Shown: positions 4,494 to 12,364, counted from the stretch's first letter. The stretch: 32,000 bases of DNA from Nostoc sp. NIES-4103 (GCA_002368335.1 AP018288.1:1187343-1219342), one strand, 5' to 3'. The notes: generated by a model from the sequence alone, not told the origin. Numbers and translations are program-made.

Positions 4494-4660
4494 GTGGCTT
4501 CTCCTTTAGTGCAGCTAGCTGAAGGGATTATTCCCAAAATTGGCTAGACAATGCGATCGCCCAACACCTATTTTGCATCTGGAAAATCCACAGAGAACAA
4601 TTTTTGGCGATGAATCTATCTAAAGAGGTAAGAGGTAGTACCAAAAGGTAGGAGTTAGGT

Positions 4661-4719
4661 GTCAGTTGTCAGTTGTCATTTGTTAGTTGTCATTTGTCAT
4701 TTGTCATTTGTTAGTTGTT
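4661..4719. repeat. STRR heptamer array (TTGTCAG/TTGTCAT/TTGTTAG)
   Basis: Direct reading: gtcagttgtcagttgtcatttgttagttgtcatttgtcatttgtcatttgttagttg. Confidence 0.9.
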
Positions 4720-4720
4720 A

Positions 4721-4772
4721 TTCATTAATCTCCCCTGCTCCCCCGCTCCCCTGCACCCCTGCACCCCATCTC
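4721..4772. repeat. C-rich short tandem repeat (CCCCTGCT/CCCCGCT/CCCCTGCA/CCCCATT variants)
   Basis: Direct reading: tcccctgctcccccgctcccctgcacccctgcaccccatctccccatttccc. Confidence 0.75.
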
Positions 4773-4863
4773 CCCATTTCCCAGGCTTGCTCTGAGGAAT
4801 CATGCACTTTTTGCGTTATTAGTAGTCAAGGGCCTAAGTACTGGGTACTGGGAAAAAATTCCT

Positions 4864-4940
4864 CCAATTCCCAATCCCCAATCCCCAATCCTCAATCCCC
4901 AATCCCCAATCCCCAATCCCCAATCCCCAATCCCCCAATT
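4864..4940. repeat. STRR heptamer array (CCCCAAT)n ending at the helicase start codon
   Basis: Direct reading of about 10 units: ccaattcccaatccccaatccccaatcctcaatccccaatccccaatccccaatccccaatcccccaatt. Confidence 0.95.
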
Positions 4941-4944
4941 GACA

Positions 4945-6498
4945 ATGCCTCGCACCCCTACATTAACGTTTGATCGTGGTACATTAATTTTGCACCCACC
5001 ACCACGCGGCAAAGCTTGGATGGACTATGCTACATGGGATGATCGAGTTGAAAAATTCCGCATTCCTGCTATTAGATACCGCCCATTGGTAGAAGCACTA
5101 AAAGCAGAAGATGTGCATTTCGTTGATGAGGCAAAGCAATTTTATCCTGTGGATTTGGTTGCCGGTTTAGAAATGGAACCCTATCCCCACCAAAGTGAGG
5201 CGTTAGCGGCTTGGAAGTTGGCGGGAAGGTTAGGGGTGGTGGTGCTACCTACGGCTGCGGGAAAGACTTATCTGGCGCAAATGGCAATGCAGGCGACACC
5301 GCGGACTACTTTGATTGTGGTGCCAACGCTGGATTTGATGCATCAGTGGTATGCACACTTGGTGGCGGCGTTTCCTGATGCTGAGGTGGGGTTGCTTGGG
5401 GGTGGTTCGCGGGATAAAACTGCTATTCTAGTTGCAACTTACGATAGTGCCGCAATTCATGCCGAAGCGCTAGGTAATCAATATGGGTTAATTATTTTTG
5501 ACGAATGTCATCATTTGCCGACAGATTTTAATCGGGTAATTGCAGAGTATGCGATCGCGCCTTATCGTTTGGGACTTTCGGCAACGCCTGAACGCACAGA
5601 TGGGAAACACGCAGACTTAAATATCTTAATTGGGCCGGAAGTATATCGTAAACGTGCTGAAGATTTGGCAGGTAAGGCACTTGCAGAACATGAAATTGTG
5701 CAGATTAAAGTTAAACTATCACAAATTGAACGCGAAAGATATAACGAATTAATCCAAACGCGCAACGATTTTTTAAGACAATCAAAGATATCTTTGGGCA
5801 GTATTCAAGGTTGGCAAATGTTCGTGCAAATGAGTGCGCGATCGCAAGCTGGACGCAGGGCTATGTTAGCACACCGCGAAGCGAAAGAAATTGCTTTGGG
5901 GACTGATGGCAAGTTGCGAATTTTAGCTGATTTACTGGCACAACATTATCCAGAACGGGTGTTAATTTTCACTGCTGATAATGCCACCGTTTATAAAATT
6001 TCTCAAGATTTGCTAATTCCGGCAATCACTCATCAAACTCCGGTGAAAGAACGTCATGAAATCTTAACTAAATTTCGGGAAGGTGAATATAATACCTTAG
6101 TTGCTTCCCATGTGTTAAATGAAGGTGTTGATGTGCCTGCTGCTTCTATTGCTATTATTTTATCTGGTACAGGCTCAACTAGAGAATATATTCAACGTTT
6201 GGGGAGAGTTTTACGTAAAGGCAATATTCAGAATAAACAAGCTATTTTATACGAAGTGATAGCAGAAGATACCAGCGAAGAAAATACTTCTGCACGACGG
6301 AGAGGTGAAGAAAGACGAGGAAATTTACAAGTTATTTACGGCAGTGGTAAAGTAACAACGGCTAAAGCTGCCGAACAATTAGAAATAAACTATACAGTCA
6401 ATAATTCGCAAACGAACAACCAGGAAAATGCTACCAACGGAACTACTAAGCCACCGTCTAAACGGCGAAGAAATAATACCAAAAAGACTGAAGATTGA
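4945..6498 (+). CDS. XPB/Ssl2 (ERCC3/Rad25)-like superfamily-2 DNA helicase
   Basis: The N-terminus [11 protein letters not shown] resembles the XPB damage-recognition domain start. Helicase motifs are [18 protein letters not shown] and [14 protein letters not shown], with a C-terminal lobe ([21 protein letters not shown]). ATG at 4945; the track starts 2 codons earlier at TTG 4939. The basic low-complexity tail overlaps the next gene. Confidence 0.85.
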
Positions 6499-7645
6499 CC
6501 AGAGACATATAGATTTAACTAATGAATTAATTGCCTGCTTTCAAGCAGCACAAGGTAAAACTCAGGGTTTTTTGGAAAATCAGCTTTTAGATTTAGAAGG
6601 AGACGCAACAGATTATCGAGTCAAGCGGGGTTTGGCTTATGTTATCAAAAGCAACTTCTGCACCTTTGAAGTCGTGAGTCCTCTAGAACCACAAATATTA
6701 AGAGAAAGGGTGTTTTCGTTGGCGGCAAAATCTGCACCTAGCCGGGAATCAACACAACTGACATTGAGCAAAATTGCTGATGAATTAACCCAGGAATTAG
6801 AACGAGAAATTTTCATCCAGCAAGTGCAAGATGGACTCTACGCCGACTTATCTGAAAATAAGATTTTAACCAACTTTGATGTTCCTACACCAGTAGATAT
6901 CTTAAATCGATATAACTTATCTCAGGTACAGGGAATATTTTATAAAGCAAGTAAGTTAATATTAAACGCTCATCGCAATGTTCCGGGAGAATATAAGTTA
7001 TTGTTCCGCTATTTAAAGTTATTTCAATTAATGGCTTATATTGAAGGAGACGCTGACCACGGGTTTACAATTACCGTTGACGGGCCGACGAGTTTATTTA
7101 ATGCTAGTACACGTTATGGTTTGGCGATCGCTAAATTGATTCCCGCCTTACTTCATGTCACCAAATGGAGTTTAGCCGCCACCTTACAAACCCGTGATGT
7201 CTACACAGATACGTGGAGAACAGGTAGATTTACCCTCAATTCTGAATGCGGTTTAGTATCCCACTACTCCAAAGGGAAACCCTACGATAGTATGCTAGAA
7301 GCATCCTTTGCTGATAAATGGGATGCGTTAAAAACCGACTGGGTATTAGAGCGAGAAGTGGATTTAATTCCCATTCCTGGGAGTGTGATGATTCCTGATT
7401 TCCGGTTAGTTCATCCTGATGGACGCGACTTTTTATTAGAAATTGTCGGTTATTGGCGACCAGAATATTTACAAAAGAAGTTTTCCCAAGTGCGGCGTTC
7501 TGGTTGTGATAATTTGATTTTGGCAATTTCTGAAAGATTGAATTTGGAAAAAGCGGGGGTAAAGTTAGATAATGTGCCAGCAAGAATTATTTGGTTTAAA
7601 GATAAGTTATTACCAAAAGCTGTATTAGCAGTGTTAGGAGAATGA
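6428..7645 (+). CDS. DUF790 family (Bax1-like) endonuclease, partner of the XPB helicase
   Basis: 405-aa ORF overlapping the helicase 3' end by 71 nt. The N-terminus [21 protein letters not shown] and the C-terminal IPDFRLVHPDGRDFLLEIVGYWRPEYL match my recollection of the DUF790 restriction-endonuclease-like core. Gene order copies the archaeal XPB-Bax1 pair. Confidence 0.75.
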   Translation: MLPTELLSHRLNGEEIIPKRLKIDQRHIDLTNELIACFQAAQGKTQGFLENQLLDLEGDATDYRVKRGLAYVIKSNFCTFEVVSPLEPQILRERVFSLAAKSAPSRESTQLTLSKIADELTQELEREIFIQQVQDGLYADLSENKILTNFDVPTPVDILNRYNLSQVQGIFYKASKLILNAHRNVPGEYKLLFRYLKLFQLMAYIEGDADHGFTITVDGPTSLFNASTRYGLAIAKLIPALLHVTKWSLAATLQTRDVYTDTWRTGRFTLNSECGLVSHYSKGKPYDSMLEASFADKWDALKTDWVLEREVDLIPIPGSVMIPDFRLVHPDGRDFLLEIVGYWRPEYLQKKFSQVRRSGCDNLILAISERLNLEKAGVKLDNVPARIIWFKDKLLPKAVLAVLGE

Positions 7646-8021: not shown

Positions 8022-8122
8022 AAACGTGAAAAGGGAAGTTGTTACAGCCTACGCGAAACACGGAAACGTGAAGGCGGAAGTTATTACAGGGAAGGCGGAA
8101 GTTGTTACAGCCTGCGCGAAAC
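8022..8122. repeat. about 2.5 imperfect tandem copies of a ~30-40-nt unit (GAAGGCGGAAGTTGTTACAGCCTGCGCGAAAC)
   Basis: Direct reading. Units lie at about 8022-8061, 8062-8091 and 8092-8122. Confidence 0.7.
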
Positions 8123-8435: not shown

Positions 8436-8870
8436 ATGGAACCTGTAACATTAACAGCAGTTGCAACAGCGATCGCTACTATAGTTTTAACTAAGGCTTT
8501 AGAAAAAACAGGTGAAAAGCTTGGGGAAGCTGCGTTAGCTGAAAGCGGTAAATTAATCGCGCAGCTACGTAGTAAAAATAAAGTGCCTTTGTTAGCTGAG
8601 GCGACACCAGAAAATACACAGCAGCCTTTAGATTATGGCAAAGCAGTACTAGAATTGAAAGCTGTAGCAGATGCAGATCCGGAAATTGCTCAATCTGTGA
8701 GGGATGTGGAAGCCGCAGCAAACGCCGATCCTCAAGTAGCGCCAAAAGTCCAAGGTTTAGCAAATGATATCAATTCGCAACCAGCTGGTGTGATCAATTC
8801 TACAAAGTTGGCTGAGTCTATTAAAAGCGTCTTTCAGGGAAATACTTTCATCGGTACTCAGCATTTCTGA
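8436..8870 (+). CDS. 145-aa N-terminal module of the NLR-like protein, detached by an in-frame TGA (hydrophobic N-terminal helix plus helical region)
   Basis: ATG at 8436 gives MEPVTLTAVATAIATIVLTKAL.... The frame is the same as the NB-ARC ORF, and TGA at 8868-8870 is the only stop between them. Confidence 0.6.
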   Translation: MEPVTLTAVATAIATIVLTKALEKTGEKLGEAALAESGKLIAQLRSKNKVPLLAEATPENTQQPLDYGKAVLELKAVADADPEIAQSVRDVEAAANADPQVAPKVQGLANDINSQPAGVINSTKLAESIKSVFQGNTFIGTQHF

Positions 8871-8945
8871 CTGCATTCGCCTGAAGGGGAACGGGTAAAG
8901 TTAAATCCCTCTACTGAAATACCGCAAAATCTCCCCTTAACTGGG

Positions 8946-11492
8946 GTGGTGGAGTTTGTCGGACGTGAAACGGAACTGCAAAACCTGCACGAGATGTTGC
9001 AGCAAAATGATAGCGTAGCAATTACTGCTATAGCCGGAATGGGTGGACTGGGGAAAACAGAACTTGCTCTACAATATGCAAAGGCTCACCGTGAAACTTA
9101 CAACGGTGGAATTTGCTGGTTGTTTCCCAAAGTTGGGGATGTGGGGATTCAAATTGTCCAGTTTGCCAGAACTCACCTTGATTTAAACGTACCAGATAAT
9201 TTAACAGAAGATTCTAGCCAAAAATTACTTGCCCAAGTGCAATATTGCTTTCGCCTTTGGCGTGAGGGTGATGTGCTGCTAGTGTTGGATGATGTTAGCG
9301 ACTATGAGGAAGTAAAGCCTTATTTACTGTCGTTACCTTCTCGGTTTAAAGTGCTGATGACTACACGTCAGTATTTTGGAGGTATAGCACAATTATCTTT
9401 GGATGTGCTGCAACCAGAGGCGGCGCTGGAGTTATTAAAGTCAATTATTGGGGCGGAACGAATTGAACGAGAGAATGACCTAACCCCCCTACCCCCTTCC
9501 CTGGGAGGGAAGGGGGAGATTTGTTCCCCTCCCCTACAAGGGGAGGGGTTAGGGGAGAGGTCACGCGGGGAAATCGTTGCTTTGCAATTGTGTGAGTGGC
9601 TGGGATATTTGCCTTTGGGTTTGGAATTAGTGGGGCGATATCTGGCGCGGAAGCGGGATTTGTCCCTTACAGAAATGTTGCGGCGATTAAATCAAAAGCG
9701 ATTAGATGAGCGTTCCCTTTCTAAGTCTAAGTCAGAAGCAAACATGACAGCACAACGGGGTGTGTTAGCAGCTTTTGAGTTGAGTTGGCAAGAATTAGAG
9801 GATGCTGATAAAGAGTTGGGCTGTTTGCTGAGTTTATTCGCCGCTGCACCTATACCTTGGGATTTGGTAGAACAATGTTTACCAGAGGAAGACGAGGAAG
9901 AAATCGAAGAAATTAGAGATGAAAAGTTGTTGAATTTGCATTTACTCCAGCGTAAGGGTGAGGGAATTTATCAACTGCATCCACTACTGCGCGAGTTTTT
10001 CCAATATAAGCTTACAGGTTTAGAACGAGCAGAGGAATTTAAGCGATCGCTTTGCGAGGTAATGGTAGCTGTTGCCAAGGAGATTCCTGAAGATCCCATC
10101 CTTGAGCAAATCAACGCTGTTTCCCCTGCAATACCTCACATAGCTGAAGTAGCGAATCATCTCATTCAATACCTCAGCGATGATGATTTAATTTGGCCAT
10201 TCATCGGCAACGCTCGGTTTTACAATGGTCAAGGACTATATGACAAAGCAGCACCTTGGTTTGAGCAGTGTCTAGAAGTTACCAAAAAACGCTTGGGACT
10301 TGAGCATCCATTTGTTGCCACTAGCCTCAACAATCTGGGAGTACTTTACTATTCTCAAGGAAAGTACAGCCAAACCGAACCCCTGTACCTCCAAGCTTTG
10401 GAAATGAAACAACGCCTACTGGGAATTGAGCATCCTTTTTTTGCAGAAAGCCTTAACAATCTGGCGTATCTCTATTACTCTCAAGGAAAGTACAGCCAAG
10501 CCGAACCTCTATATCTCAAAGCTTTGGAAATTAACCAACGCTTACTGGGAATTGAACATCCATCTGTTGCACAAATCTTTAACAATTTAGGGAATCTCTA
10601 CTATTTTCAAGGAAAGTACAGCCAAGCCGAACTCATGTACCTCCAAGCCTTGGAAATGAGGCAACGCATACTAGGAATTGAGCATCCTGATTTAGCCACT
10701 AGCCTCAACAATCTGGCCTTACTCTACGATTCCCAAGGAAGATACAGCCAAGCCGAACCCCTGCTTCTGCAAGCGTTAAAAATGAGGCAACGCCTACTGG
10801 GAATTGAGCATCCTGATTTAGCAAATAGTCTGAACAATCTGGGGTTACTCTACAAATCCCAAGGAAAGTATAGCCAAGCCGAACCCCTAATTCTGGAAGC
10901 GTTAAAAATGAGGCAACGCCTACTGGGAATTGAGCATCCTGATGTTGCACTTAGCCTCAACAATCTAGCGGTACTCTACAAATCCCAAGGAAGATACAGC
11001 GAAGCCGAACCCCTATATCGCCAAGCGCTGGAAATGAACCAAAGCCTACTGGGGCTTGAACATCCTGATGTTGCACTTAGCCTCAACAATCTGGCAGGAC
11101 TCTACCATTCCCAAGAAAACTACAGCCAAGCCGAACCCCTCTATCTCCAAGCGCTGGAAATGAGGCAACGTCTACTGGGACAGGAACATCCATCTGTTGC
11201 AGAAAGCCTCAACAACCTGGCAAATCTCTACAATTCCCAAGAACAGTATAGCCAAGCCGAACCGTTGTATCTCAAAGCTTTGAAAATGAGGCAACGCCTA
11301 CTAGGACAAGAACATCCAGATGTCGCACAAAGTCTCAACAGCCTAGCAACACTCTACCAATCTCAAGAAAAATACAGCGAAGCCGAACCCCTCTACATCC
11401 AAGCTTTAGATATTTGTGAGCGACGCTTAGGACTAAATCACCCCAATACTGTTACTGTGCGTGAAAATTTAGCAGATTTGCGCGATGCCTGA
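8946..11492 (+). CDS. STAND NTPase: NB-ARC domain plus about 11 TPR (TPR_10/12, kinesin-light-chain type) repeats; NLR-like
   Basis: P-loop GMGGLGKTELA, Walker B LLVLDDV, RNBS-B-like MTTR, GLPL-like GYLPLGLELVG, then 42-aa repeats (HPxVAxSLNNLAxLYxSQGxYSxAEPLYxQALEMxQRLLG). GTG at 8946 is the only available start. Confidence 0.9.
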   Translation: MVEFVGRETELQNLHEMLQQNDSVAITAIAGMGGLGKTELALQYAKAHRETYNGGICWLFPKVGDVGIQIVQFARTHLDLNVPDNLTEDSSQKLLAQVQYCFRLWREGDVLLVLDDVSDYEEVKPYLLSLPSRFKVLMTTRQYFGGIAQLSLDVLQPEAALELLKSIIGAERIERENDLTPLPPSLGGKGEICSPPLQGEGLGERSRGEIVALQLCEWLGYLPLGLELVGRYLARKRDLSLTEMLRRLNQKRLDERSLSKSKSEANMTAQRGVLAAFELSWQELEDADKELGCLLSLFAAAPIPWDLVEQCLPEEDEEEIEEIRDEKLLNLHLLQRKGEGIYQLHPLLREFFQYKLTGLERAEEFKRSLCEVMVAVAKEIPEDPILEQINAVSPAIPHIAEVANHLIQYLSDDDLIWPFIGNARFYNGQGLYDKAAPWFEQCLEVTKKRLGLEHPFVATSLNNLGVLYYSQGKYSQTEPLYLQALEMKQRLLGIEHPFFAESLNNLAYLYYSQGKYSQAEPLYLKALEINQRLLGIEHPSVAQIFNNLGNLYYFQGKYSQAELMYLQALEMRQRILGIEHPDLATSLNNLALLYDSQGRYSQAEPLLLQALKMRQRLLGIEHPDLANSLNNLGLLYKSQGKYSQAEPLILEALKMRQRLLGIEHPDVALSLNNLAVLYKSQGRYSEAEPLYRQALEMNQSLLGLEHPDVALSLNNLAGLYHSQENYSQAEPLYLQALEMRQRLLGQEHPSVAESLNNLANLYNSQEQYSQAEPLYLKALKMRQRLLGQEHPDVAQSLNSLATLYQSQEKYSEAEPLYIQALDICERRLGLNHPNTVTVRENLADLRDA
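9476..9570. mobile_element. nested-palindrome small dispersed repeat inserted in frame inside the NB-ARC coding sequence
   Basis: Hairpins are ccccttccct-gg-gagggaagggg and cccctcccct-acaa-ggggagggg, flanked by gacctaacccc...ggggttagg..ggtc. It is translated as LTPLPPSLGGKGEICSPPLQGEGLGERS. The boundaries are approximate. Confidence 0.7.
10230..11480 (+). repeat. 126-nt (42-codon) tandem coding repeats encoding the TPR array
   Basis: Long near-identical stretches recur at a 126-nt period, for example aggcaacgcctactgggaattgagcatcctgat at 10786 and 10912. Confidence 0.85.
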
Positions 11493-11726: not shown

Positions 11727-11945
11727 ATGTTAATTACATACACAGCAAAATATACAAAAATTGATAGCGGATATATGGGACAACTCATTGAATGGCAAGA
11801 AGTCATCACAGAAGGAGAAACTTTAGAAGAATGTAGAGCTATGTTACAAGACGCAACAAGAGAAATGATACTCGCCTATCGTCAACAAAATAAAGAAATT
11901 CCTACAGGTAATTCTTTACTAGAACAAATTCCTGTAGAGGTTTGA
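11727..11945 (+). CDS. hicB: HicB-family antitoxin
   Basis: 72 aa. YTAKYTKIDSGYMGQLIEWQEVITEGETLEECRAMLQDATREMILAY matches the HicB/UPF0150 fold pattern. It overlaps the hicA start. Confidence 0.8.
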   Translation: MLITYTAKYTKIDSGYMGQLIEWQEVITEGETLEECRAMLQDATREMILAYRQQNKEIPTGNSLLEQIPVEV

Positions 11946-12136
11946 GCGTGTCAGTCAAACGAAAAGATATTATTAAATATTTAGAAGAGAATGGATTTTA
12001 TCTGTTAAGAGAAGGAGGAAATCATTCCATTTATACTAATGACGTGAAAACTATTCCCGTCAAACGACATCGTACAATTGATCGCATTACTGCTAATGAA
12101 CTCTGCAAACAGGCAGGTTTGTTGCCTAAATTTTAA
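11942..12136 (+). CDS. hicA: HicA-family mRNA interferase toxin
   Basis: 64 aa. KRKDIIKYLEENGFYLLREGGNHSIYTN...IPVKRHRTIDRITANELCKQAGL is the typical YcfA/HicA pattern. The start is TTG 11942 or GTG 11948. Confidence 0.8.
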   Translation: MSVSVKRKDIIKYLEENGFYLLREGGNHSIYTNDVKTIPVKRHRTIDRITANELCKQAGLLPKF

Positions 12137-12364
12137 TTACTGGTAGTTCATGTTCCAGTTTTAACCCCAACAAAATCCAGTCTTCTAGTGTTGAGCGTAA
12201 CTCATCTTCACACTCGCGCAAAGTCAAGCCAAAAGCTACAACTCCCTGACAAGCAGGAATTCTAAGAAGCAAATGTGCCCTCTTCGAGCTTGTCATAAAC
12301 AGCTTGGGCGATCGCTCGATGAACATAGTCACTCAGAATAAACTGTATAGCCATGAAACTTTAT
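12126..12364 (-). pseudogene. frameshifted HicB-like antitoxin
   Basis: ATG at 12364 gives MAIQFILSDYVHRAIAQAVYDKLEEGTFAS* (stop at 12272-12274). A different frame continues ...RIPACQGVVAFGLTLRECEDELRSTLEDWILLGLKLEHELPVIKI. Together they resemble one HicB-like protein broken near 12275-12290. Confidence 0.6.

Follow-up and report, generated by a model that had tools for sequence, protein, structure and literature searches.

Results

Two reading frames joined across a single TGA

We analysed a 32,000-nucleotide (nt) stretch of the Nostoc sp. NIES-4103 genome (GCA_002368335.1 AP018288.1:1187343-1219342; the window hereafter), in which a gene for a putative Bell-type effector and a gene for an NB-ARC sensor lie in one reading frame, separated by a single TGA codon. 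The first open reading frame (ORF), ORF-A, occupies positions 8436-8870 on the plus strand, starts with ATG and encodes 144 residues before the TGA at 8868-8870; its product is identical to the hypothetical protein NIES4103_09880 (BAZ48380.1). The second, ORF-B (8946-11492, plus strand), is called from a GTG and encodes an 848-residue sensor, in which Pfam recognized NB-ARC (PF00931, 1.5e-15), TPR_10 (1.3e-135, 10 units) and TPR_12 (1.4e-120). The two starts are 510 nt, or 170 codons, apart, and the TGA is the sole stop between them. The intervening 75 nt (8871-8945) contain no stop and no ATG, GTG or TTG; they translate as a 25-codon linker, LHSPEGERVKLNPSTEIPQNLPLTG, which ends in the pre-P-loop segment PQNLPL(S/T)G and runs into VVEFVGRETEL, and past the TGA no canonical in-frame start comes before the GTG at codon 25. 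Aligned with seven homologous readthrough ORFs, the window ORF is collinear from the first codon behind the stop. An earlier note on this DNA had described an NLR-like gene (NLR, from nucleotide-binding domain plus leucine-rich repeat) cut off from its N-terminal module by one in-frame TGA. Its shared frame, sole stop, GTG start and read-through length of 1019 codons (both stop codons counted) all hold, with a module of 144 residues; its NB-ARC domain also stands, and the about 11 TPRs that it placed behind this domain are 10 units in Pfam.

No promoter or terminator was found by a scan between ORF-A and ORF-B, and Rfam returned nothing relevant around the TGA site and no family match at E <= 10. 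The 32-kb window contains no tRNA or suppressor tRNA gene.

Conservation of the stop codon and the frame

Scanning one genome per species, we obtained 380 relatives and kept 79 loci, 74 of which have a complete small ORF. At the stop position, which the earlier note had proposed to compare among orthologues, all 74 loci carry TGA, followed by C in 71 and by T in three; neither TAA nor TAG occurs there in any intact copy. The 241 other long ORFs of the same loci end in TAA (48.5%), TGA (29.5%) or TAG (22%), and TGAC accounts for 2.5%. In 69 of the 74 loci the frame continues without a stop for at least 100 codons past the TGA, and for up to 1228, into a nucleoside triphosphatase (NTPase) of the STAND class (signal transduction ATPases with numerous domains). 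The other five are the canonical two-gene pairs L062 and L068, the disrupted loci L038 and L066, and a copy in L026 that ends prematurely with the analysed stretch. The sensors of the 69 loci carry an NB-ARC-type pre-P-loop motif (51), a NACHT-type motif (15) or neither pattern (3), and Pfam confirmed NB-ARC in the window and L092 and NACHT in L065 and L073.

The first codon past the TGA is CTG in 34 loci and CTA in another 34, with CTC (2), TTG (2), TTA (1) and CCA (1) making up the rest. An in-frame ATG, GTG or TTG does not occur until 17-129 codons downstream and, in one NACHT group, only at codon 71, past conserved protein sequence. The anchor motif FVGR or YVP stands at a distance from the stop of 25, 26, 27 or 28 codons in one class of loci and of 46 or 48 in a second, differing by whole codons only. 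At least a dozen Nostocales genera, with about 70 loci, keep the TGA together with the shared frame and the sequence behind the stop, and a TGA at the same position also recurs in paralogues within single genomes. Judged from these comparisons, the arrangement is confirmed as lying far beyond chance. A UGA with C at +4 is the leakiest termination context, UGA-CUA favours readthrough, and 3' structures stimulate it (PMC7026636); the proposed recoding site of the window, UGA with C at +4, spans 8868-8871.

By its substitution pattern and its relatives, the start-less stretch behind the TGA is coding. In the NACHT loci, codons 12-23, which precede any NTG codon, show a ratio of nonsynonymous to synonymous divergence (pN/pS) of 0.32, and the start-less peptide TPINWxEICRQLLEPRRRLTSNP (TPINWHEICRQLLEPRRRLTSNP) of these loci occurs internally in NLRs with a start codon of their own. 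In the NB-ARC loci, the segment PQNLPxSGVVEFVGR is likewise internal in NLRs with an N-terminal effector-associated domain or amyloid motif (P0282, P0290, P0294), indicating that the annotated GTG is an internal Val codon. The sensor ORFs themselves are under purifying selection (pN/pS 0.49-0.69); a fixed-offset dN/dS for the upstream ORF was discarded as unreliable because of tail indels. In the records checked, sensors were annotated from arbitrary internal GTG or TTG codons, and such start calls probably apply at most of these loci.

A conserved RNA hairpin behind the stop

Past the small ORF, the loci share the consensus TGA CTR NNN TCG YCY G..., whose conservation exceeds what the encoded peptide requires. 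In 61 distinct sequences (alignment A2), the TCG Ser codon leading into the stem never varies at its last two bases and hardly at the first, and the spacer between the stop and the hairpin is always 8 nt. The hairpin has a 5-bp stem and a purine-rich loop of 8-9 nt without a bulged U, and is not of the selenocysteine insertion sequence (SECIS) type. In the window, the spacer CUGCAUUC occupies 8871-8878 (8872-8878 after the +4 C) and the hairpin 8879-8896, with the stem strands 8879-8883 (GCCUG) and 8892-8896 (CGGGU) enclosing the loop AAGGGGAA at 8884-8891.

The stem covaries. Columns 19-37 of A2 pair as CG (50) or UA (10), columns 21-35 as CG (28), UA (23) or UG (5), columns 22-34 as GC (55) or CG (3), and a further pair is GU in 51 sequences and GC in 10. 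Pairing is possible in 92% of the stem cells, a share that falls to 6-43% once the partners are displaced by 1-3 columns, the covariation lies above that of all 500 shuffles, and RNAalifold independently predicts the same helix. Compensatory changes replace Pro..Val by Ser..Thr, and a synonymous Pro site (CCU/CCC) covaries with a Gln/Arg change; because compensatory pairs alter the encoded residues, these patterns indicate that selection is acting on the RNA of the element. In agreement with constraint at this level, synonymous divergence is lowered over the hairpin (pS 0.09-0.22 vs 0.26-0.58 in the NTPase). The covariance model R1 finds the element in 89 places, normally once per locus and twice each in L026 and L046. 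An outer helix UGACU/AGUYA that would include the stop codon (in the window, 8868-8872 with AGUUA at 8899-8903) was predicted by RNAalifold and by the single-sequence fold, but its columns barely vary and give covariation neither way, and it was set aside. We refer to the UGA-C, the spacer and the hairpin as the cassette.

A cassette locus also lies on a PCC 7120-type Anabaena chromosome (L090 4501-7215; CP183817.1 4562765-4572223). Its 152-residue Bell ORF (4501-4959) has an HNTYN tail and is followed by TGA CTA CAG TCG CCC GAA CAG GAA CGG GTA and an NB-ARC/TPR sensor, whose start differs between annotations (5029 vs 5041); the start-less linker of this locus includes LQSPEQERVRLNPEIPQNLPLSGVVK.

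ORF-A belongs to a family of small Bell-type proteins

We searched 5.8 billion proteins and obtained 219 homologues of ORF-A, the best 120 of which are all 87-199 residues long, mostly 139-152, and come from Nostocales. A profile search of 1.84 billion cluster representatives gave 397 matches; among the best 150 listed, all but five are shorter than 220 residues. In a 28-sequence alignment (A1), the N-terminal 125 residues (8436-8810 in the window) are conserved and the tails variable, and the family start reads MEPVTL..TK.LEK.GE. ORF-A begins with MEPVTLTAVATAIATIVLTKAL and has a hydrophobic helix 1, and its MEPVT start matches the MEPIS-type N-terminus described for Bell and Hell domains (bioRxiv 10.1101/2024.11.07.622273). 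The AlphaFold2 (AF2) model, of moderate confidence (mean predicted local distance difference test (pLDDT) score 66), is all-alpha, with a helix at residues 6-25 and five further helices, and leaves residues 135-144 disordered (pLDDT < 50).

Pfam, NCBIfam and PADLOC gave no meaningful match to ORF-A, and neither Foldseek against the Protein Data Bank (PDB) nor a profile search of PDB sequences returned anything below E = 1; Bell membership therefore rests on sequence homology and the literature. With the small protein of L062 ORF-A shares 63% identity, and the gene pair at that locus corresponds to the BASS5 pairs listed by Dyrka et al. (2020, bioRxiv 10.1101/2020.01.06.895854; Table S2). Because the small-protein relatives in L062 and L068 form BASS5 Bell/NLR pairs, ORF-A is on homology a Bell-domain effector, as the earlier note had suggested in likening it to Bell/HeLo-type domains with an amyloid-like tail; the MEPVT start and a paralogue in L046 with a BASS7 tail (see below) support the same assignment.

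The C-terminal tail of ORF-A, AESIKSVFQGNTFIGTQHF (8811-8867), has a core of the form VFQGxTF. Its terminal G/N/Q-rich motif reads SVFQGNTFIGTQHF, and the candidate amyloid segment is KLAESIKSVFQGNTFIGTQHF. Across the family, the last ~20 residues fall into at least four unrelated G/N/Q-rich types: VFQGNTFxGTxxF, AEKGAMVAQQITIxEQHNTYN, NLNQAQNITINQTNTF and VVxGGTGSIQNQSF. Bell-side BASS2 motifs of Streptomyces read GPVFQGQTFS in the table of paired motifs of Dyrka et al., and the ORF-A tail is accordingly described here as amyloid-motif-like, a putative signalling motif with a BASS2-resembling core.

Cassette loci lack the second motif of canonical pairs

The two canonical loci of the same Bell family provide a direct comparison. 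In L062 and L068, the small ORF stops at TGA-T, no hairpin follows, and the next in-frame stop comes after 4 codons; the NACHT gene, in a different frame, has its own ATG and repeats the effector tail KLAEKIGQVVVGGTGSIQNQSF in its N-terminus MPEDTGKFAEKIGVVAHNSTVNIHNQNIGV, matching the BASS5 Bell/NLR pairs KLADKIGQVVMPGGTGNIQNQ with MPEDSGKFADKIGVFAAPGAQVNIGTQI in Table S2 of Dyrka et al. By contrast, no second motif copy was found in the 25-codon linker or the NB-ARC N-terminus of the window, and a junction query of 5.8 billion proteins found no NLR with the window tail at its N-terminus. In every locus examined for this, a second motif copy with a separate start and the UGA-C-hairpin cassette are, from the sequences, mutually exclusive.

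The strings FQGN, QGNTF, HNTYN, QQITI and NQTNTF, which stand for the three commonest cassette tail types, are all absent from the paired-motif table of Dyrka et al., in which the only near match is the BASS2-like core from Streptomyces. The screen that defined BASS motifs demanded a matching motif on the NLR (Dyrka et al. 2020), and the absence of cassette tails would be expected if they have no NLR-side copy. One exception was noted: a Tolypothrix locus carries in its flank a second cassette (L046 1356-1406), which ends a 125-residue Bell protein whose tail ENWQGINVKGGTNTISGNTFNF matches BASS7, a type listed as canonical pairs in Table S2; this cassette leads in frame into an NB-ARC that is cut short after 103 codons. 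The supplements of Dyrka et al. yielded none of the accessions BAZ48380, RCJ37669 and RCJ33357; the protein of L030 is RCJ37669.1, not the RCJ33357.1 of their figure.

The cassette joins different effectors, tails and sensors

Within the Bell family, one tail type occurs with different sensor classes, and one sensor class with different tail types. The cassette also extends beyond this family: in L092 and L093 it stands at the end of free-standing alpha/beta-hydrolase effectors of 271 residues. In L092 (4814-4858), the sequence ...ACT TGA CTA GAG TCG CCT GAA GAG GAA CGG GCA AAG... is in frame with an NB-ARC/TPR sensor. In L093 (1118-1162), TGA CTA GAG TCA TCC GAA GGG GAT CGG ATA AAG is in frame with a 333-residue ORF that has a start resembling a twin-arginine translocation signal and no Pfam match, and its stem AUCCG/CGGAU adds a further compensatory variant.

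A scan of 241 million metagenome records for the cassette with a TGB codon at the stop position, other codons being outside its reach, gave five matches, four of them chance matches and one real. The real one, L087 2438-2488 (minus strand), encodes an intact 1003-residue protein in which an alpha/beta-hydrolase domain, a Cys (TGT), LESPEKDRAKSNP and a NACHT domain follow one another. The closest relatives of its hydrolase domain, which is DUF676/PGAP1-like, are free-standing proteins of 271 residues that end exactly at the junction. In L080, TGG (Trp) stands exactly at the stop position and is followed by LESP; the hairpin has one mismatch and the NACHT part is frameshifted. A Bell-tail-NACHT fusion without a stop was found in P0261. 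We also considered P0021, an apparent Bell-NB-ARC fusion with Trp at the stop position, and rejected it: its DNA (L083, ENA ERZ27286106 k141_596624) has TGA, which the gene caller read as Trp, presumably under genetic code 4. Such gene calls are a trap when sense-codon variants are sought in protein databases.

In several loci the cassette is intact and the sensor disrupted: the NB-ARC of L015 is frameshifted, foreign sequence begins after 24-30 codons in L038, and early stops occur in L066 and L075. These four loci suggest that the sensor part turns over frequently. A degenerate cassette was seen in L081 (628-700), where the Bell gene stops at TAA, GTGGAGTCGCCTGAATCGGAACAGACAAAGTTAAC follows and the next stop in frame comes after about 25 codons; apparently the sensor has been lost, and the second, fused gene (P0261) adjoins.

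Other features of the window

A 96-nt in-frame insertion within the NB-ARC (9477-9572) contains two perfect palindromes, CCCCCTTCCCT/AGGGAAGGGGG and CCCCTCCCCT/AGGGGAGGGG, the first of which scores as intrinsic-terminator-like. It is missing from the seven homologues, is unique to the window and looks like a small miniature inverted-repeat transposable element (MITE). A palindrome similar to these, CCCTCCCCGCCGGCGGGGAGGGG, occurs in L021.

Just upstream of ORF-A, an XPB/Bax1-like pair (4939-7645) consists of an XPB-type helicase (XPB_DRD, ResIII, Helicase_C) and an overlapping DUF790 protein; a short tandem repeat (8070-8110) and a truncated PIN-like ORF occupy the gap before ORF-A. The sensor is followed directly by a HicB-like (UPF0150)/HicA toxin pair, with a second HicB-like ORF on the opposite strand (11727-12332).

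Discussion

A proposed programmed readthrough

We propose, with a probability of about 0.75, that the locus is one translational unit with a leaky, programmed UGA stop, from which a short effector and a rare effector-sensor fusion would both be made. Comparative evidence of several kinds supports this proposal: the conserved UGA-C, the shared frame and the hairpin, the lack of a start and of a second motif behind the stop, the mutual exclusivity with canonical pairs, and the reuse of the cassette with other effectors. Among the explanations that the earlier note had listed, a recoding event fits best, on the strength of the conserved TGA-C, the covarying hairpin 8 nt downstream and this reuse. 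Its alternative of a natural split into effector and sensor with paired amyloid motifs holds for the Bell effector and the adjacent sensor, but not for the sensor's start codon or motif copy, neither of which is present.

Most ribosomes would stop at the UGA (8868-8870) and release a free 144-residue Bell membrane effector with an amyloid-like tail. We infer that readthrough occurs at an efficiency low enough for a minority of ribosomes to decode the UGA, most likely as Trp through a near-cognate tRNA, aided by the UGA-C context, the CUG or CUA codon that follows and the small hairpin. Trp is the likely residue at a UGA that is read through, and a hairpin 8 nt past the A-site codon would sit at the mRNA entry channel of the ribosome. 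The product would be a fusion of ~1018 residues in the order Bell, tail, linker, NB-ARC and TPR. The sensor would thereby take its sole N-terminal signalling module, amyloid-like tail included, from the effector gene, and would therefore need neither a duplicated motif nor a start codon of its own. Upon ligand recognition, the fusion may oligomerize through its NB-ARC and cluster its tails or effector domains; these would then recruit and activate the excess free effector, in the case of the tails by amyloid templating, leading to membrane damage and abortive cell death. The system would thus act in abortive infection.

Several observations weigh against this proposal or limit it. We know of no established precedent for a bacterial hairpin that stimulates readthrough, and the window hairpin is short, with a modest stability (-9.1 kcal/mol, z = -1.96). 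The hairpin is intact in the fused variant L087 although the codon there is a sense TGT, and it may therefore have a role besides readthrough stimulation. L080, the only sense-codon variant within the Bell family, may be a decaying copy or a misassembly. The NB-ARC groups also conserve the nucleotides of the linker just behind the hairpin (pN/pS 0.72 and 1.57), so that coding constraint is not separately demonstrable there, and in the window itself the 96-nt palindromic insertion could impair the sensor. Finally, the alpha/beta-hydrolase versions have no obvious amyloid tail, indicating that the supply of an amyloid motif is not the whole reason for the arrangement. These versions use the same cassette, and the common theme would be an excess of free effector together with a little effector-sensor fusion, a logic broader than amyloid templating.

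Alternative explanations

Bell and NLR genes as a rule stand side by side, closely coupled and at most 10 bp apart (Dyrka et al., bioRxiv 10.1101/2020.01.06.895854), a layout that would also suit two separate proteins, with the sensor initiated independently by termination-reinitiation after the UGA or at an internal GTG or TTG. The role of the hairpin would then lie in mRNA processing or stability, or in retaining ribosomes, setting a high effector-to-sensor ratio, and effector and sensor would communicate in another way. Annotation pipelines do call the sensor from GTG or TTG, the codon differing between records; TTG stands directly past the TGA in two loci, and the database protein P0281 is called from such a start; and an intercistronic hairpin could stabilize the upstream cistron. 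We nevertheless regard independent initiation as unlikely. The post-UGA codon is a non-initiating CTA, CTC or CCA in half of the loci, no Shine-Dalgarno sequence and start are conserved in combination, and the first NTG of one NACHT group comes only at codon 71, past conserved protein sequence. The GTG of the window corresponds to an internal Val codon of NLRs with N-terminal domains, and a sensor begun there would have no signalling N-terminus at all, whereas the canonical members of the family have a normal ATG and a motif. Independent genes would, moreover, have no reason to keep a common frame and whole-codon indels over about 70 loci. A quite different possibility, which would extend the readthrough proposal and which we consider improbable, is that the readthrough level is itself what is sensed. 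The locus would then be a guard on translation termination, in which weaker UGA termination during infection drives the fusion past a threshold and triggers cell death. Phage opal-suppressor tRNAs (in stop-recoded phages), inhibition of release factor 2, or shifts in the tRNA pool or its modification might be triggers, and the NLR would be armed by translational stress as well as by a TPR ligand.

It could also be supposed that the sensor is normally silent, the junction being poised to give active fusions through a TGA-to-sense mutation or through recombination, with the hairpin marking a hotspot of module shuffling. The joining of different tails, effectors and sensors by one cassette does suggest recombination at this point, and sense-codon variants exist (L080, L087). 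We hold this to be very improbable, however: the sensor ORFs are open over 500-1200 codons and keep their pN/pS of 0.49-0.69 in dozens of lineages that retain the TGA, whereas untranslated sequence would decay, and sense variants are very rare, with one real match among the metagenome records. Decoding of the UGA as selenocysteine, the hairpin being a SECIS element bound by SelB, is suggested by the conserved hairpin close behind the UGA, a signature of bacterial selenoprotein genes, and by the Cys codon of L087. In Cyanobacteria, the ability to decode Sec has not been detected (PMC1794560; PMC9312934), yet the cassette occurs throughout the Nostocales, the PCC 7120-type chromosome included. 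The element has no Rfam match, and the site lies in a linker behind an amyloid-like tail, with no redox context. L080 has Trp at the position, and the Cys variant came from a scan limited to TGB codons; we judge this reading highly implausible. A single in-frame stop between the halves of a plausible gene could, lastly, mean a fused receptor recently inactivated by a nonsense mutation, or a sequencing error in the assembly, both of which the earlier note had raised. The same TGA stands at the same position in about 70 independent assemblies, in at least a dozen genera and in paralogues within genomes, excluding a sequencing error and a recent pseudogene for practical purposes. The lineage-specific stop and decaying flanks of a pseudogene are not seen, the downstream ORFs being intact, and the 144-residue protein belongs to a conserved free-standing family (397 representative clusters, almost all of 120-160 residues).

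Significance and comparison with known systems

We found no published description of readthrough, recoding or suppressor tRNAs in Bell/NLR, other bacterial NLR, cyanobacterial or anti-phage systems, in a search of incomplete coverage. To our knowledge, most known cases of such recoding come from viruses and eukaryotes, and the bacterial ones mostly from phages and selenoproteins. If the proposed readthrough is real, the cassette loci would represent a large, conserved family of cellular bacterial genes with programmed readthrough and a dedicated RNA stimulator. Readthrough would explain how many cyanobacterial NLR-like sensors that seemingly lack an N-terminal signalling domain are wired to their effectors, and why the amyloid-like tails of many Bell proteins are 'orphans' that lack a partner motif. 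It would also set the effector-to-sensor ratio by compact means and ensure, with both products coming from one mRNA, that the templating motifs are identical. For annotation, the consequence is that sensor genes behind the cassette were, in the records checked, called from arbitrary internal codons. The copy in the PCC 7120-type Anabaena would allow a direct test if that strain is as tractable as PCC 7120.

The bacterial selenoprotein genes share with the cassette an in-frame UGA and a conserved hairpin within about 10 nt, and one relative has a Cys codon, but they differ in their SECIS-like loop or bulge and redox context, and the cassette lineage is reported to lack Sec decoding and has a Trp-codon relative. 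Parallels are also offered by readthrough signals such as the UAG of murine leukaemia virus gag-pol, with its 8-nt spacer and pseudoknot, the viral and eukaryotic UGA-CUA(G) and the A1 protein of phage Qbeta, a comparison drawn from PMC7026636 and general knowledge. As in these signals, a leaky stop has favourable +4 to +6 positions (UGA-C, CUA or CUG), an RNA structure begins 8 nt downstream, and one mRNA would give a short and a C-terminally extended protein in a fixed ratio. Unlike them, the cassette defines a chromosomal bacterial family, uses a hairpin of 5-6 bp and precedes an NTPase extension of 870 residues, and its readthrough is inferred.

Among immune systems, the cassette loci resemble the Bell/BASS-NLR pairs (Dyrka et al. 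2020, bioRxiv 10.1101/2020.01.06.895854), which likewise combine a small helical Bell protein, with a MEP-type start and a tail of ~20 residues, with an adjacent same-strand NB-ARC or NACHT sensor with repeats in filamentous cyanobacteria; Bab/Agp in Escherichia coli is a close known Bell/NLR system (bioRxiv 10.1101/2024.11.07.622273). In those pairs, however, the NLR has its own start and motif, whereas here an in-frame sensor lies behind a conserved UGA-C and a hairpin. The predicted long isoform, in turn, has the same order of Bell, NB-ARC and TPR as all-in-one NLRs (fungal HeLo/HET-S; bacterial Bell-NLR, Avs2 and bNACHT), and fused relatives exist in L087 and P0261, but here the fusion would be a minor product beside the free effector from the same mRNA. 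The cassette would thus combine the all-in-one and the two-component layouts in a single gene.

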